NCBI GenBank assembly: GCA_041662625.1
Contig: JBAZSB010000001.1
Coordinates: forward strand, 471,093 to 535,092
DNA from: Patescibacteria group bacterium
GTDB lineage: Bacteria; Patescibacteriota; Patescibacteriia; Buchananbacterales; UBA6539
Reading direction: 5' to 3'
Length of the DNA stretch: 64,000 nucleotides
How positions within the stretch are numbered: position 1 is the first letter of the stretch; every line of letters starts with the position of its first letter. Shown piece after piece: positions 19,314 through 37,249 of this stretch. The notes under the pieces were generated by a model. The model made no database searches. It had not been told where the DNA came from and saw nothing but the letters and a program-made list of their open reading frames with translations. The position numbers and the translations under genes were made by a program.

Positions 19314-20006
19314 TTACCTGCCAAATCGCCTCTGTCTCTTATTATAGTCTTTAATAATTTTATCCAGATCTTTCTGGTTAAAATCCGGCCAGTGTTTTTT
19401 GATAAAAACTAGTTCTGAATAAACCGATTGCCAGGTCAAAAAATTAGACAAACGCTGTTCGCCGGAAGTTCTGATAATCAAGTCGGGATCGGCGATACCT
19501 TGGGTCCAAAGATTTTTAGAAATTAAATTTTCATTAATTTTTTGAGCAGGGGTCTTTTTACTGATTATTTTTTTGACCGCTTGCAAAATATCTGGTCGGC
19601 CGCCATAAGAAATCGCCAGATTAAATAATAACTTCCGATTATTTTTTGTTTTGCTTTCTGCCGCCTTAATCAATTTTTGAATATCTGGCGCCAATCTTTC
19701 CCGCTGGCCGATGACCTTGAGGCGTACCCCTTGTCGATCAAGTTCGGAAATATCCCGGCTTAAAGCCTGACGGAAAAGATTCATCAGATAATTTACCTCG
19801 GTTTTCTTCCGGCTCCAGTTCTCGGTGGAAAAAGCATAAACCGTCAAAATCTTGATCCCTTTATCAATACACCACCGACTCGCTTCCTTCATTTTACTAT
19901 AACCACGGCGGTGGCCTTCGAGGCTGGGCAAACTGCGATTTTTCGCCCAGCGCCGATTACCGTCCATAATTATACCAATATGGGTTATAGGGGTTTTAAG
20001 CCTCAT
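19314..20006 (-). CDS. uppS: Undecaprenyl-diphosphate synthase (cis-prenyltransferase)
   Basis: GIIMDGNRRWA and the RTSGEQRLSNFL motifs. Confidence 0.9.
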   Translation of the reverse strand: MRLKTPITHIGIIMDGNRRWAKNRSLPSLEGHRRGYSKMKEASRWCIDKGIKILTVYAFSTENWSRKKTEVNYLMNLFRQALSRDISELDRQGVRLKVIGQRERLAPDIQKLIKAAESKTKNNRKLLFNLAISYGGRPDILQAVKKIISKKTPAQKINENLISKNLWTQGIADPDLIIRTSGEQRLSNFLTWQSVYSELVFIKKHWPDFNQKDLDKIIKDYNKRQRRFGR

Positions 20007-20101
20007 AAAATGGCAAATTTTAACGAATAAAGGCTACCTTATTCTACCGCTAAAGCCATTTTTGGTCAAAACCGTGATTATTTTAAAATCTGGTTAAAAC
20101 A

Positions 20102-20130
20102 TTGACAAAATTATAGAAATATGCTATAGT
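20102..20130 (+). promoter_or_regulatory. Near-consensus sigma-70 promoter (TTGACA-17nt-TATAGT) at the start of the GC-rich segment. A leader hairpin TATCTCTTGGCGCAAGAGATA follows at ~20137-20157.
   Basis: Hexamers and spacing read directly from the sequence. Confidence 0.45.
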
Positions 20131-20206
20131 GTAATGTATCTCTTGGCGCAAGAGATAGGGCTGCGAAAGAATTGGCAAACCACACAAATGTGAAAGGAGA
20201 CTTGAC

Positions 20207-20599
20207 ATGTGGTGGAAGCTGTTCATTCGTAGCTGTATCGGATCCTTGATTTTGGCTCTTGTAGCCGGCCTGATCGCCACGCGATTGGGTGATAGCAGCA
20301 GAGCTGGCTTAATTGCCAAGTACGTCTGCTGGCTGGGAATCGGGATCCCAAGTGCCATCTGCATCATAGTGGCTGTACGCCAGTTCATGGTTTCCATGAT
20401 TACTGGGATACACCGCCTGATAAAAGGGCACTCGCAATTCATTGGCGGACTACTGGTCGTCTTTGGTTTCGGCATCGCCGCTGGCCTTGGGGGCGCGGAG
20501 ACTGACTACGACAGTGTTCTGCCAAATATCATCGCCGGCCTTGTCGGACTGGCAATGATGTTCCTCGGGACTAAGCTGTTGCAAAACAGCAAAGTCTAG
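20207..20599 (+). CDS. GC-rich (~52%) small membrane protein, 4 TM, unknown function
   Basis: 130 aa with a strong SD AAAGGAGA 7 nt upstream. Its composition contrasts with the ~35% GC neighbours. Confidence 0.5.
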   Translation: MWWKLFIRSCIGSLILALVAGLIATRLGDSSRAGLIAKYVCWLGIGIPSAICIIVAVRQFMVSMITGIHRLIKGHSQFIGGLLVVFGFGIAAGLGGAETDYDSVLPNIIAGLVGLAMMFLGTKLLQNSKV

Positions 20600-20621
20600 G
20601 TACCCACAACCGACATCATCG

Positions 20622-20690
20622 AGGCCGCTTGCTTGGTCACCTCCCTCCTTACGGGTGACTTCTCAAAGCGGCCTCGCCTTTTTTTATTTA
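20622..20690 (+). terminator. Rho-independent terminator (GAGGCCGCTT...AAGCGGCCTC stem + T-run)
   Basis: GC-rich hairpin followed by TTTTTTTATTT. Confidence 0.55.
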
Positions 20691-20800
20691 CTTATCTTTT
20701 TTAAAAGATTATAATATAAGTAGAGGTCATTCATAGTCCATATCATCTGTTCTCCTCTGATAAAGGCCTGATTATCATCATCGGGCAAAGGAGGTGTCAG

Positions 20801-21151
20801 ATGACAACTTACTCTTTTGGCGGTGTAGCCAAAGAAAAAGAACCGAAACAAAGCTGCATCGAGGATGTTGTAGCTAGGCACCGAAATGGCAAAGGAGATC
20901 AAGCCGATCTAGAGGCTGCTCTGAAAGATTTGAAGACGCTTTGCGTCTTTGAACCTTCACTCCAGGAAAAAACCGGCCCGAACAAAACGTTGATAGTCGA
21001 TGTCCCGCTACGGCGGTTAACACTGGAGCAACTTCGGGCAATACTGATCGGCAACAAAGCTGAAATCCGGTTTGGATTTCTGTGGTTAGGGAAACTGACG
21101 ATAAGTAAGAAATCGGTGGTCTACCGCCGAGTTCGTTCCTTGCGCCACTAG
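20801..21151 (+). CDS. GC-rich soluble hypothetical protein
   Basis: 116 aa. SD AAGGAGGT, an upstream TATAAT, and a downstream hairpin GCGACAAAATTGACTTAA..TTAAGTCAATTCTGTCGC + T-run (~21155-21210). Confidence 0.45.
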   Translation: MTTYSFGGVAKEKEPKQSCIEDVVARHRNGKGDQADLEAALKDLKTLCVFEPSLQEKTGPNKTLIVDVPLRRLTLEQLRAILIGNKAEIRFGFLWLGKLTISKKSVVYRRVRSLRH

Positions 21152-21286
21152 CTTTCCCGGCGACAAAATTGACTTAAAGCGATGACTTAAGTCAATTCTG
21201 TCGCTTTTTCTTTAAAGATAATATAACTGCTGGCTGACTACTTACCGGGTTGATTTTTTGTTTGAAACTATCTAGACTGAAATATA

Positions 21287-21415
21287 CGGGCTGTAGCGCA
21301 GCTGCCCCGATGTCCGCCTTTGGCGGAATCGGGATCCCGACATTGCCAAAGGCAATCGTCGGGAGCTAGCGCGCATCGTTGGGCCTGCCCGCGTTGCTTT
21401 CACTGCGGGGTTAAA
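21287..21415 (+). other. tRNA-like 5' half. It has an acceptor strand CGGGCTG, a D-arm GCGC/GCGC with a ~58-nt structured insertion in the D-loop, and an anticodon-stem-like CATCG followed by TTGGGCC.
   Basis: It is closely similar to the 5' half of the adjacent tRNA-Pro (TAGCGCAGCTGG...CTAGCGCGCATCGTT) but has no matching 3' half nearby. Confidence 0.35.
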
Positions 21416-21441
21416 ATTAGAAATCTAAAACCGTTCTGAGT

Positions 21442-21515
21442 CGGGGTATAGCGCAGCTGGCTAGCGCGCATCGTTCGGGACGATGAGGTCGCCGGTTCGA
21501 ATCCGGCTACCCCGA
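21442..21515 (+). tRNA. tRNA-Pro (anticodon CGG), 74 nt, no encoded CCA
   Basis: Hand-folded cloverleaf: acceptor CGGGGTA/TACCCCG, D-stem GCGC/GCGC, anticodon stem CATCG/CGATG, loop TTCGGGA, T-arm GCCGG-TTCGAAT-CCGGC, discriminator A. It is flanked by an 11-bp extension of the acceptor stem (CCGTTCTGAGT / ACTCAGAACGG) plus a T-run. Confidence 0.85.
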
Positions 21516-21554
21516 CTCAGAACGGTTTTTCTAAAAAAGCAATGCGAAAGCAGG

Positions 21555-21620
21555 CGGGGAGGTCGTGGGTTTTCCGACGTGAAGTCGGAATCCCGACCAA
21601 ATGGTCGGGACAAATCCCAC
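21555..21620 (+). other. tRNA-like 3' half. It has a variable-loop AGGTC, a T-arm-like GTCGG-GACAAAT-CCCAC, an acceptor 3' strand CAGCCCG, discriminator A and an encoded CCA.
   Basis: The 3' acceptor strand is exactly complementary to the 5' strand CGGGCTG at 21287. Relative to tRNA-Pro there are compensatory changes at two stem positions. Confidence 0.35.
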
Positions 21621-21972
21621 CAGCCCGACCAAATTAAATAACTTTAAATCATTTCGCTCAATTAGGCGATTTTTTGTTTTTCCCTGTAACAACTACCAAA
21701 ATCCAACGTCTAAGTTATGCTAAAGGGGAAAACAAACCCCAAAAAACAACTAAATAAAAATACAAAAATAACCCAAAGGCCTTAAAGAAAAATGCTTCTT
21801 GAAAGCTCAGGAGGACCCGCGCCGAGGTTATTAGCTTGTATACCTAATCACCAACTTAAACTTAACACCAAAGCAACAACCCCCAAACCTAGCACATACC
21901 TCGGTAAGCCGAGGTTATTTTTATCTGCCAGTCGATTCACATAACGTAGTTCTTTGAAAGGAGGTGGCAGTC

Positions 21973-22428
21973 ATGAAACCGAACGTAAGTAACGGCCATG
22001 CTGTCTCAGCAATCAAGCGACTGTCTGCCGCGCGTGCTGCCAGAAATATTGTGGGGCTCAACAGCATTTATCTGCTAACTCTAATCGTCACCATTGCCAC
22101 TCTGGCAATGTTCTGGATCGAATTTCTCTTCCCGAAGTATCACGTCGGGCTCACCCGCTCCTTTGTTTACTACAGTCTTCTGACTTTCTATGTAGTCTGC
22201 AAAGAAGCTTACCGGTGGGTCGGCTGGCACGGAGAGAAAAGAGTTGGCGCTGTATGGGTGCTGATCTGGTGGACTTCAACTTTCCTGATGGAAGTAATCA
22301 GCTTCCTGGGTCAGGAGCGGTTCACCCCCCTTGAGGAACAATATCTGGTGACAGTGGCAGTATCAGTCAACTTCTTGCTCTCGCGATTATCGAGATGTCT
22401 CTACGAAAGACGCCTGTCTAGGCGGTAA
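21973..22428 (+). CDS. GC-rich small membrane protein (3-4 TM), unknown function
   Basis: SD AAGGAGGT lies 6 nt before the ATG at 21973. The terminator GGAGAGAGGCTCCCCTCTCTCC + T-run follows at ~22440-22480. Confidence 0.5.
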   Translation: MKPNVSNGHAVSAIKRLSAARAARNIVGLNSIYLLTLIVTIATLAMFWIEFLFPKYHVGLTRSFVYYSLLTFYVVCKEAYRWVGWHGEKRVGAVWVLIWWTSTFLMEVISFLGQERFTPLEEQYLVTVAVSVNFLLSRLSRCLYERRLSRR

Positions 22429-36736: not shown

Positions 36737-37091
36737 ATAAAAGTCATCCCGAACTCGGTTCGGGATCTCATAAAATATTTAAGAGATTCTGAAACAAGTT
36801 CAGAATGACAATAAGAGTATTACTTTGTTTCTTTATGCACGGTATGTTTTTTGCAGTGCCGACAGAATTTATTTAATTCCAGCCGGGTTTTAAGAGTTTT
36901 TTTATTTTTTTTGGAAAAATAATTGACTCTTTTACATTCCTTGCACTCTAATCGAATCAAGTTGTCCTGGGACATAAATTTAACAGGTTAACAATTAACA
37001 ATTAACAATTAACTTGAATTGCTAAACTGATAATTGATAACTATGATTAATAGTTAATTATTAATAGTTAATAGTTAATTGTTTGAAGTGG

Positions 37092-37164
37092 AGCCAACGG
37101 TCGGATTCGGACCGACGACCTACAGTTTACAAAACTGTTGCTCTACCAACTGAGCTACGTTGGC
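37092..37164 (-). tRNA. tRNA-Thr (anticodon UGU); CCA encoded at 37089-37091
   Basis: Acceptor GCCAACG/CGTTGGC, anticodon stem ACAGT/ACTGT, loop TTTGTAA, T-arm GTCGG-TCCGAAT-CCGAC. Confidence 0.85.
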
Positions 37165-37167
37165 TGG

Positions 37168-37249
37168 TGGGTGGAGCAGGATTCGAACCTACGTAGGCAA
37201 AGCCAGCTGATTTACAGTCAGCCCTCGTTGACCACTTGAGTATCCACCC
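37168..37249 (-). tRNA. tRNA-Tyr (anticodon GUA), class II long variable arm; CCA encoded at 37165-37167, directly abutting the 5' end of tRNA-Thr
   Basis: Acceptor GGGTGGA/TCCACCC, anticodon stem GCTGA/TCAGC with loop CTGTAAA, variable arm TGGCTTTGCCTAC, T-arm GTAGG-TTCGAAT-CCTGC. Confidence 0.85.

Follow-up and report, generated by a model that had tools for sequence, protein, structure and literature searches.

We analyzed a 64,000-nucleotide (nt) stretch of contig JBAZSB010000001.1 from a Patescibacteria group bacterium (the window; window positions are counted from its first letter and lie on the forward strand unless stated otherwise) and found a tRNA gene nested inside another. An outer tRNA-Pro-like gene spans 21287–21631, about 345 nt, and is interrupted in its D, anticodon, and T loops. 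A complete tRNA-Pro(CGG) sits between its halves on a base-paired stalk. An earlier reading of the same letters (the original prediction) had proposed that the outer halves pair and enclose a large block with a complete second tRNA, and both folding and the inner tRNA call support this. RNAfold gave −189 kcal/mol for 21287–21625 (z = −11.6 against shuffled sequences, for a version lacking the true 3′ end) and −196 kcal/mol for 21287–21631, where seven of seven outer acceptor pairs form. In the fold of the 345 nt, the D loop forms two compound hairpins, the T loop forms two hairpins, and a long imperfect arm bears the inner tRNA. The nest is not an assembly artefact, because an independent assembly (L101, a separate Joint Genome Institute assembly) is 99.94% identical over the shared region, which starts just upstream from the nest at 21276. 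Thus, the nested layout is confirmed as real and not due to chance. Nests of this kind occur in at least five further lineages, and loci from other assemblies are designated below by L numbers.

The Inner tRNA-Pro Sits on a Perfectly Paired Stalk

ARAGORN called a tRNA-Pro(CGG) at 21442–21516, and Rfam matched RF00005 at 21442–21515 with 66.1 bits (E = 3.6e-12; gathering threshold, 29). The canonical tRNA-Pro(CGG) predicted at 21442–21515 is therefore upheld by both programs. The gene has C1-G72, A73, a 7-nt anticodon loop (TTCGGGA), and a 7-base-pair (bp) acceptor stem (CGGGGTA/TACCCCG). It encodes no CCA, unlike three of the other four tRNA genes of the window; in the flagged region, CCA is encoded by the outer molecule alone (21629–21631), as had been noticed. 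The inner copy is almost certainly a working tRNA-Pro.

The inner acceptor stem continues into a stalk whose 5′ strand (AAAACCGTTCTGAGT, 21427–21441) makes 15 of 15 Watson-Crick pairs with its 3′ strand (ACTCAGAACGGTTTT, 21515–21529), as found by inverted-repeat analysis and RNAfold. An extension of the stem had been seen before but put at ~11 bp; the T run described as following it exists and is the 3′ strand of the stalk helix itself. Stalk and acceptor stem are continuous, so that 22-nt arms are 100% complementary (21427–21448 with 21508–21529). These 22 consecutive Watson-Crick pairs form the kind of uninterrupted leader/trailer helix, about two turns long, that marks an RNase III-type processing stalk. 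The first base of the 3′ strand is the inner discriminator A73 (A21515), which is base-paired in the predicted precursor. Because the discriminator is paired and no CCA is encoded, the inner tRNA must be cut from the 22-bp helix and then given its CCA.

The Outer Gene Is Interrupted in Three Loops

The outer 5′ half reads CGGGCTG TA GCGC AGCTG, a 60-nt insert, then GCTA GCGC G CATCG TT. Its acceptor strand CGGGCTG (21287–21293) makes seven of seven pairs with 21621–21627 and is the same as in the intact tRNA-Pro(CGG) of relatives. Positions 8–18 follow at 21294–21304 (TA, the D-stem 5′ strand GCGC, and the D-loop start AGCTG) and equal both the inner tRNA and the intact gene of one relative, L125. 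Beyond the insert, 21365–21380 holds the 3′ part of the D loop with the D-stem 3′ strand (GCTAGCGC), G26, the anticodon-stem 5′ strand CATCG (21374–21378), and TT; this part equals the L125 gene up to the TT. The start at 21287 and the near identity to the 5′ half of the inner tRNA had been predicted correctly: the two halves are 89% identical over 18 nt (CGGGCTGTAGCGCAGCTG) and 95% identical over 19 nt (GCTAGCGCGCATCGTTGGG), the latter repeat covering the part after the insert.

In place of the outer anticodon loop stands a long imperfect arm. Within its 5′ strand (21381–21426), GGCCU, CCCGC, and UUGCUUUC pair with 21546–21564 in the RNAfold structure. Its 3′ strand (21530–21564) ends in GCGGGG AGGTC, and AGGTC (21560–21564) is the outer variable-loop sequence. 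Judging from the L125 gene, the CGGGG of the arm may be an altered 3′ anticodon strand, which reads CGATG when intact. The TTGGGCC that had been taken for a GGG anticodon loop is instead the junction of a truncated CGG-type loop.

The 3′ half reads AGGTC GTGGG TT, a hairpin module, then CAAAT CCCAC CAGCCCG A CCA. Its T arm (21565–21620) has the stem GTGGG (21565–21569)/CCCAC (21616–21620) around a 46-nt loop of the form TT...CAAAT, and folding together with lineage comparison places the module between positions 55 and 56. The T-arm-like GTCGG-GACAAAT-CCCAC proposed earlier had overlooked this stem and its two-hairpin loop. The acceptor 3′ strand CAGCCCG (21621–21627), discriminator A (21628), and CCA (21629–21631) are the same as in intact genes of relatives. 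The true end is therefore 21631, not 21625 as first given for the whole feature or ~21620 for its 3′ half.

Relatives Carry the Outer Gene Intact at the Same Place

Relatives were fetched through UppS homologs, and synteny was judged by the order PFOR ... tRNA-Pro ... UppS-MgsA-NUDIX-PilT. A search among them for an uninterrupted version, as the original prediction had suggested, was successful: L125, L010, L008, L127, and L151 carry at the syntenic place an uninterrupted tRNA-Pro(CGG) with the outer acceptor CGGGCTG...CAGCCCG-A, with or without CCA. Another relative, L126, has a plain tRNA-Pro there with the inner-type acceptor CGGGGTA/TACCCCG. Because relatives carry the intact gene with the same acceptor at the same place, the comparison identifies the outer halves as the resident tRNA-Pro(CGG) gene and the inner gene as one from a different tRNA-Pro lineage. 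It also bears on the co-varying outer acceptor stem, which had been read as a sign of selection on a joined RNA. The halves are indeed complementary, but CGGGCTG/CAGCCCG is simply the acceptor of the resident gene in relatives; since halves that descend from a single tRNA are expected to pair, the "co-variation" is no evidence of selection on a joined RNA.

The closest comparison is with L125, the sister lineage of the window (87% amino-acid identity over UppS+MgsA+PilT). In a neighbor-joining tree, nested L003, L124, and the window fall with plain L125 in one clade, with L125 nearest to the window. Compared with the intact L125 gene, the window has lost or changed residues CGGGACGATG, which make up the anticodon and 3′ anticodon strand, and the outer tRNA-like positions that it retains are identical at 65 of 65. 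Identity in the flanks is 58% over 80 nt upstream (mostly promoter) and 52% over 100 nt downstream, with divergence near saturation. The tRNA-Pro debris found downstream from the plain genes of L125 and L008 is visibly decayed, unlike the outer segments of nests. Thus, the outer tRNA-like parts appear to be under sequence constraint, which is favored because 65/65 identity stands against flanks of 52–58% and because the hairpin modules (see below) are ~65% alike between near-unchanged tRNA-like segments. Possible causes of the identity are a very recent insertion in the window lineage, selection for an RNA function, or a role as matching homology arms.

The syntenic loci hold other tRNA-Pro fragments, all on the minus strand. 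The decayed debris of L125 (L125:3975–4130) contains a hairpin of GGTGCGGG...CCCGCACC. It also contains a 3′ tRNA half, after which comes TAAAGGTGAAGGATTAGGGAC, a sequence homologous to the stalk and anticodon-loop remnant after the inner tRNA of L003. A mini tRNA-like element is conserved in three lineages downstream from a tRNA-Pro gene or nest (L125:3808–3858, L008:4628–4680, and L124:3785–3875). It consists of a 5′ acceptor/D-stem fragment, cgggcttTAGCGCAG, fused to a variable loop, T arm, acceptor strand, and CCA, with a terminator after it; in L124 it is the outermost 3′ half and has its own T-loop module. L008 has an open reading frame (ORF) for a GIY-YIG nuclease at L008:4869–5150 and a truncated tRNA-Pro copy with a two-hairpin module at L008:4818–4905 (agctt ccgcc aaa ggccg a cccgcc tct ggcggg ggcta gcgc). 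This ORF runs across the module with its last ~14 codons and ends on the TAG of the D loop. A tblastn search with the protein against the window and all fetched loci returned only the self-match. Between the promoter and the plain tRNA-Pro of L151 lies a 30-nt stretch starting cgggccc (L151:2830–2870), possibly what is left of an earlier outer 5′ acceptor strand.

Nests Recur in Other Lineages

One genome scan, one metagenome scan, and synteny look-ups yielded five nested lineages besides the window: L003, L124, L046, L120, and L099. The pattern of the genome scan, GGGTTN{28,58}AAATCCCNCCAGCCCGA, was too permissive on its 5′ side, and nearly all of its 63 loci were ordinary tRNA-Pro genes or chance matches in coding sequence; L046 was the only true example. 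Five of the 50 metagenome loci were true, the new lineages L099 and L120 among them, and one was odd (L076). Both scans also returned many ordinary 3′ tRNA-Pro fragments in other bacteria. Loci of the same lineage were grouped: L003 with L004, L005, and L075 (four samples), L046 with L083, and the window with L101. A script for T arms with large structured loops, run on all collected DNA, gave mostly noise and no further Patescibacteria case. Scans of viral contigs gave no match to a specific pattern and 22 chance matches to a looser one, with no sign of a phage origin.

The lineages vary on a common plan. In L003, an outer tRNA-Pro with a D-loop hairpin and a T-loop module has an insert of ~190 nt at position 31/32; within this insert lie a further 5′ half and, on a stalk, an intact tRNA-Pro(CGG). 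L124 has three layers, the outermost with acceptor CGGGGAT/ATCCCCG, the middle with CGGGCTG/CAGCCCG, and the innermost an intact tRNA; the T loop of each interrupted layer contains a two-hairpin insert of its own. The inner and outer genes of L046 are near-identical, with a 10-bp stalk and a T-loop module. In L120, the outer RNA adopts a full cloverleaf fold in which the D and T loops carry modules and a closed 7-bp hairpin (4-nt loop) takes the anticodon position; it bears an intact tRNA-Pro(GGG) on a 14-bp stalk at the variable-arm position. In L099, a tRNA-Pro(GGG) lies in a long imperfect arm followed by a T-arm module and a 3′ acceptor strand, and the outer 5′ half is not recognizable. 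Similarity between the long arms of L099 and the window is confined to the 3′ strand beside the T arm, GGCGGG(G)AGGTCGTGGGTTT (window 21552–21579 versus L099 974–1000, 93% over 28 nt).

Five of the six lineages have a stalk of 9–15 pairs at the inner acceptor stem, joined to it directly or across a 1–4-nt internal loop (L046, L124). G·U pairs make up two of the 14 pairs in the L124 stalk and one of the nine in L003. Because G·U is a mismatch in DNA, these pairs suggest pairing at the RNA level rather than DNA inverted repeats. The outer layer encodes CCA in the window, L046, L099, and the outer layer of L124.

Three side observations concern these loci. L099 has a leader of ~280 nt (L099:530–830) between a strong promoter (TTGACA-17-TATAAA) and its inner tRNA-Pro(GGG), with no Rfam match and no tRNA 5′ half. 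L003 and L004 differ at two of 521 nt (L003 positions 5005 and 4991), both in the inner tRNA, in the D-stem 3′ strand and at anticodon-loop position 38; the changes are not compensatory. The odd locus, L076:1999–2060 (minus strand, on a high-GC metagenome contig), is a tRNA-Pro 3′ fragment in which 34 nt of GC-rich sequence are inserted where the T loop starts (gaggg tt[tccgagggccggcccacttcgggccgccccgagg]ttcaaat ccctc caccccg a cca); it lies ~160 nt past a further tRNA-Pro 3′ end, which is located at the edge of the contig. This T-loop insertion may be unrelated to the nests.

Paired-Hairpin Modules Occupy the D and T Loops

The D-loop module of the window is a GC-rich insert of 60 nt (21305–21364). 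An insert of ~58 nt closed into a three-hairpin form had been predicted; the insert exists, and the closed form is only an alternative to the RNAfold structure, in which two compound hairpins stand side by side (CCCGAU/AUCGGG with UCCGCC/GGCGGA, and UCCCGAC/GUCGGGA with AUUGCC/GGCAAU). The module is also a 74% palindrome centered on GGGATCCC. RNAfold gives two hairpins for the T-loop module (21572–21610), UUCCGAC/GUCGGAA and UCCCGACC/GGUCGGGA, with stem cores CCGAC/GTCGG and CCCGACC/GGTCGGG. The two modules of the window share a GTCGGAATCCCGA-type core, and those of L120 are 71% similar. D-loop modules analogous to that of the window are found in L120, L003, and L008.

Every interrupted layer has a paired-hairpin module in the T loop, and often one in the D loop too. 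The T-loop modules consist of two GC-rich hairpins separated by 0–3 nt, in inserts of 37–60 nt. They lie at the same point, TT-module-CAAAT, in six layers (L003, L124 middle, L046, L099, L120, and the window); the outermost layer of L124 is the exception, with TTCG-module-AGT. Across lineages, the stems change in a compensatory manner, both in the first hairpin (CCGCC/GGCGG versus CCGAC/GTCGG) and in the second (CCCGCC/GGCGGG versus CCAGCC/GGCTGG versus CCCGACC/GGTCGGG versus CCCGAG/CTCGGG). The outer acceptor also varies with pairing kept (CGGGCTG/CAGCCCG versus CGGGCTA/TAGCCCG). The T-loop modules of L124, L046, and L003 can be aligned and are ~65% identical, with insertions and deletions; the flanking tRNA-like segments differ at few positions.

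The motif CCCGAC..GTCGGG is not a genome-wide repeat, as within the 64-kilobase (kb) window it occurs at this locus only. An exact 14-nt copy of the D-loop module core GGAATCGGGATCCC (21325–21338) lies at 20336–20349, inside a membrane-protein ORF (20207–20599). It may be due to chance, yet this is improbable for a 14-mer within 3 kb.

Transcription Signals and Gene Neighborhood

A putative promoter for the whole unit was read from the sequence at 21250–21278, 8 nt before the outer 5′ end: TTGATT (21250–21255), a 17-nt spacer, and TAGACT (21273–21278). It scores under the threshold of a generic promoter scan. The layout TTGATT/TTGCTT-17-TAGACT/TAAACT precedes the plain or nested tRNA-Pro in L125, L124, L010, L126, and L151; among the relatives with an intact outer-type gene, hexamers and spacing were compared in L125, L010, and L151 and match. 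After the outer CCA, a terminator scan found a terminator-like hairpin, TCGCTCAATTAGGCGA, followed by TTTTTTGTTT (21654–21679). Since the generic scan of 20000–22100 listed no promoter between the outer 5′ end and the inner tRNA, a single transcript would be the simplest reading.

The adjacent DNA holds the membrane-protein gene (ORF 20207–20599), which has its own promoter and terminator, and a hypothetical gene. By the domains of the neighboring genes, there is no integrase within ~5 kb of the nest in the window. Elsewhere in the window (37089–37249, minus strand), tRNA-Tyr and tRNA-Thr(TGT) are encoded without a spacer, the CCA of tRNA-Tyr being followed directly by G1 of tRNA-Thr.

Discussion

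We favor, with a probability of roughly 55%, the view that the window holds a resident tRNA-Pro(CGG) locus in a nested state: the locus would yield one transcript, the inner tRNA would do the work, and the outer gene would be kept as a constrained, tRNA-shaped leader and trailer. The anticodon loop and 3′ anticodon strand of the original gene would have been replaced by a long arm tipped with a second tRNA-Pro(CGG) on a 15-bp stalk; its D loop would have gained a GC-rich paired-hairpin module and its T loop a related one. Transcription would start at the resident promoter, stop at the terminator past 21631, and give a single RNA of ~345 nt. The first cut would fall in the 22-bp helix of the stalk, made by a double-strand-specific enzyme such as RNase III and probably before the ends are processed. 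RNase P would then form the 5′ end of the inner tRNA and an RNase Z-type cut its 3′ end, followed by CCA addition. Once the inner tRNA is out, pairing in the acceptor stem and at the foot of the arm would keep the two outer pieces joined. The constraint on the outer gene could possibly serve folding and processing of the precursor, a separate tRNA-like RNA, or homology arms for the spread of a cassette.

Several points weigh against this view. A leader fully paired to the trailer is a poor substrate for both RNase P and RNase Z; a further step would thus be needed to free the inner tRNA. Co-transcription, the cleavage sites, and the stability of the outer pieces are all deduced from the letters of the DNA. 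The window covers 64 kb of the genome, and another tRNA-Pro(CGG) may lie elsewhere. The 65/65 identity could also be a legacy of the once intact tRNA, if the insertion happened very recently in the window lineage. Precise structural claims are weakened because the modules can take two topologies, side by side or as one long cruciform-like hairpin. A paired outer acceptor stem is not universal, since L099 has no recognizable outer 5′ half. The nest is also patchy within one clade, with the sister L125 plain, a pattern that fits recurrent insertion or loss as well as it fits conserved function.

Several alternatives treat the outer halves as exons or as scars. If the three inserts were introns, of group I or of the archaeal bulge-helix-bulge type, their removal should give a second tRNA-Pro. 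The loops that hold the inserts (D, anticodon, and T) are also interrupted in archaeal multi-intron tRNAs (PMC4090602), group I introns abound in the tRNAs of Patescibacteria (PMC13011429), and removing the inserts in silico restores an ARAGORN tRNA-Pro(CGG), though in L003 and the outermost layer of L124 only. Insert-free constructs of the window, L046, and the middle layer of L124, all of which lack the anticodon and 3′ anticodon strand, gave no ARAGORN tRNA, and an alternative junction in the window gave only tRNA-???. Because the anticodon loop and 3′ anticodon strand are gone, the outer gene of the window cannot be spliced to a tRNA; the spliced ~90-nt tRNA-Pro(GGG) once proposed also fails because the resident gene is of the CGG type. 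In L120 the anticodon position is a closed 4-nt loop. The inserts, hairpin pairs of 37–60 nt, fall far short of the size of a group I core, and Rfam searches found the inner tRNA only, both in 21150–21750 at E ≤ 10 (no group I intron, transfer-messenger RNA [tmRNA], or other family) and in L099, L124, and L003 at E ≤ 1. The intron reading is already contradicted for the window, and we give it next to no credence. ARAGORN likewise gave no signal for the group I intron or tmRNA suggested before. The acceptor CGGGCTG/CAGCCCG has G3-C70 rather than the G3·U70 of a tmRNA, which was rejected as a candidate. A split or permuted tRNA does not fit either, since the 5′ half (21287–21380) precedes the 3′ half (21560–21631) on one strand within 345 nt. 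The halves could instead be attachment-site (att) remnants, left by the integrase-mediated insertion and loss of a genomic island. Integration classically targets tRNA genes and commonly produces partial copies of them (PMC9897764), crossovers usually map to the anticodon and T loops (Williams 2002, cited in PMC9897764), the gene content of the PFOR-UppS interval varies among relatives, and ordinary 3′ tRNA-Pro fragments from other bacteria abound in our scans. However, att remnants are direct repeats of one tRNA end around kilobases with an integrase, whereas here all that lies between a 5′ and a 3′ half is a tRNA of 74 nt with its complementary stalk. Nor does the T loop hold element DNA; its insert is a conserved structured module. 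No integrase is found within ~5 kb in the window or among the called genes of the stretches examined around nests in five related lineages, and none of the relatives examined has the same halves flanking an integrase-bearing element. The adjacent "GC-rich element" of the original prediction, of which the nest was to be the scar, consists of the membrane-protein and hypothetical genes described above. An att origin is thus very improbable.

On our reading of the sequences, which names no machinery, the nests arose by recurrent insertion or replacement at the tRNA-Pro locus, and this could be all there is to them. A cassette of stalk, tRNA-Pro, and modules would have been copied into the loops of the resident tRNA-Pro by double-strand-break repair or homologous recombination after DNA uptake, the tRNA halves serving as homology arms, and the outer halves, having no RNA function, would be conserved because the events are recent or because the arms must match the target. 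Within one clade, the window, L124, and L003 are nested and L125, L010, L008, L151, L153, L126, and L127 are plain; the three layers of L124 imply repeated events, and the stalks and inner tRNAs of the window and L124 differ while their outer segments are the same. The module and arm base of the window (GGCGGGG AGGTC GTGGG TTT, with CCGAC-type hairpins) are closer to those of L099, which has a non-syntenic neighborhood, than to those of L124 or L003. The decayed debris of L125 and L008 fits as well, as does the 93-amino-acid GIY-YIG ORF of L008, which lies exactly between a complete tRNA-Pro and a 5′-truncated copy starting at the D-loop module. On the other hand, the neighboring genes, with their Pfam results, include no nuclease, integrase, or transposase with any of the six nests, and no target-site duplications are evident. 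The G·U pairs of the stalks and the compensatory changes in module stems point to selection on RNA pairing; modules at ~65% identity beside near-identical tRNA-like segments are hard to reconcile with all events being recent, and the stereotyped T-loop module is left without a reason. We judge such a purely DNA-level origin unlikely, though worth keeping in mind. Conversely, the outer RNA itself might be the point, as a tRNA-derived structured RNA (acceptor/T-arm helix, elbow modules, and long arm) in two pieces after excision, for example a decoy or partner of a tRNA-binding protein; it would then resemble the tRNA-like domain of tmRNA or a two-piece tmRNA. Its acceptor, D stem, T stem, A73, and CCA (the last in the window, L046, L099, and the outer layer of L124) are strongly conserved, the module architecture is conserved with covariation, the outer RNA of L120 folds to a complete cloverleaf with the inner tRNA at the variable-arm position, and the terminal mini tRNA-like element with its CCA and terminator is conserved in L008, L125, and L124. 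Yet no conserved partner protein is encoded nearby and the neighborhood differs between lineages, L099 is without a 5′ half, the module loops are not conserved, and no Rfam family matches. The anticodon is a major identity element in the recognition of bacterial tRNA-Pro by prolyl-tRNA synthetase. Aminoacylation of the outer RNA is doubtful because its anticodon is absent, and the proposal as a whole seems doubtful to us.

A wider proposal, which we put forward tentatively, is that nests form an undescribed class of composite RNA gene in some Patescibacteria. A tRNA-Pro-derived scaffold with elbow hairpin modules would carry a functional tRNA-Pro on a stalk. The scaffold might function as a two-piece RNA, or the unit might be a self-propagating cassette that replaces resident tRNA genes layer upon layer.

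We found no description of a tRNA nested in a tRNA in the literature searched, and the nearest known systems each match it in part. tRNA fragments from integrative elements are well known (PMC9897764); like the nest, they place partial copies beside an intact tRNA, with interruptions in the anticodon or T loop and variable neighboring gene content. The nest differs in its order (5′ half, whole tRNA, 3′ half), in having no integrase found with it, in its self-complementary stalk, and in the small structured modules of its D and T loops. Archaeal multi-intron, split, and permuted tRNAs (PMC4090602) are also interrupted in several loops, including D and T, and have highly conserved exons. Their exons rebuild a tRNA, whereas those of the window cannot; here the largest insert is a complete tRNA of the same specificity, and the host is a bacterium. 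A survey of Patescibacteria described self-splicing group I introns at position 35/36 of tRNAs (PMC13011429). The phylum, the anticodon-loop insertion, and the escape from standard annotation are shared with the nest, and the outermost layer of L124 is interrupted at 35/36; however, the nest has no catalytic core, its insert carries a tRNA rather than a ribozyme, and its exons are incomplete.

Among structured RNAs, tmRNA, including its two-piece form, has a tRNA-like acceptor/T-arm module and a large insert replacing the anticodon arm, and a two-piece mature form is conceivable for the nest. The nest has a proline-type acceptor (C1-G72, A73) in place of the alanine-type G3·U70, no tag reading frame, no pseudoknots, and a gene order that is not permuted. 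The RNase III stalks of 16S and 23S rRNA likewise hold a mature RNA at the tip of a long leader/trailer helix in a longer transcript; the cargo of the nest is a single tRNA, its stalk rises from a tRNA-shaped scaffold, and its cleavage is a prediction. To our knowledge, the small GIY-YIG protein family of the L008 type has not been established as homing enzymes. A precedent, not a match, is SegB of phage T4, a GIY-YIG homing endonuclease that acts in a tRNA gene cluster (PMC2330249): L008 has its small GIY-YIG ORF between a whole and a truncated tRNA-Pro at the same locus, but the window and the nested loci have no such gene.

The layout is unusual, recurrent, and unannotated, and it belongs with the disrupted tRNA genes. 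Such genes (multi-intron, split, and permuted) are regarded as an archaeal and eukaryotic specialty. The locus is a bacterial tRNA gene interrupted at three loops that holds a second tRNA of the same specificity, in several lineages and in up to three layers. The bacterial tRNA interruptions described are mainly anticodon-loop group I introns and, rarely, group II introns (PMC13011429). Standard annotation sees the inner tRNA alone, so that nests are invisible in tRNA inventories and in estimates of genome completeness for these uncultured bacteria. Should the outer layer prove functional, it would add a new structured RNA to those derived from tRNA; should it be a footprint, nested replacement would emerge as a way in which very small genomes turn over their tRNA genes.

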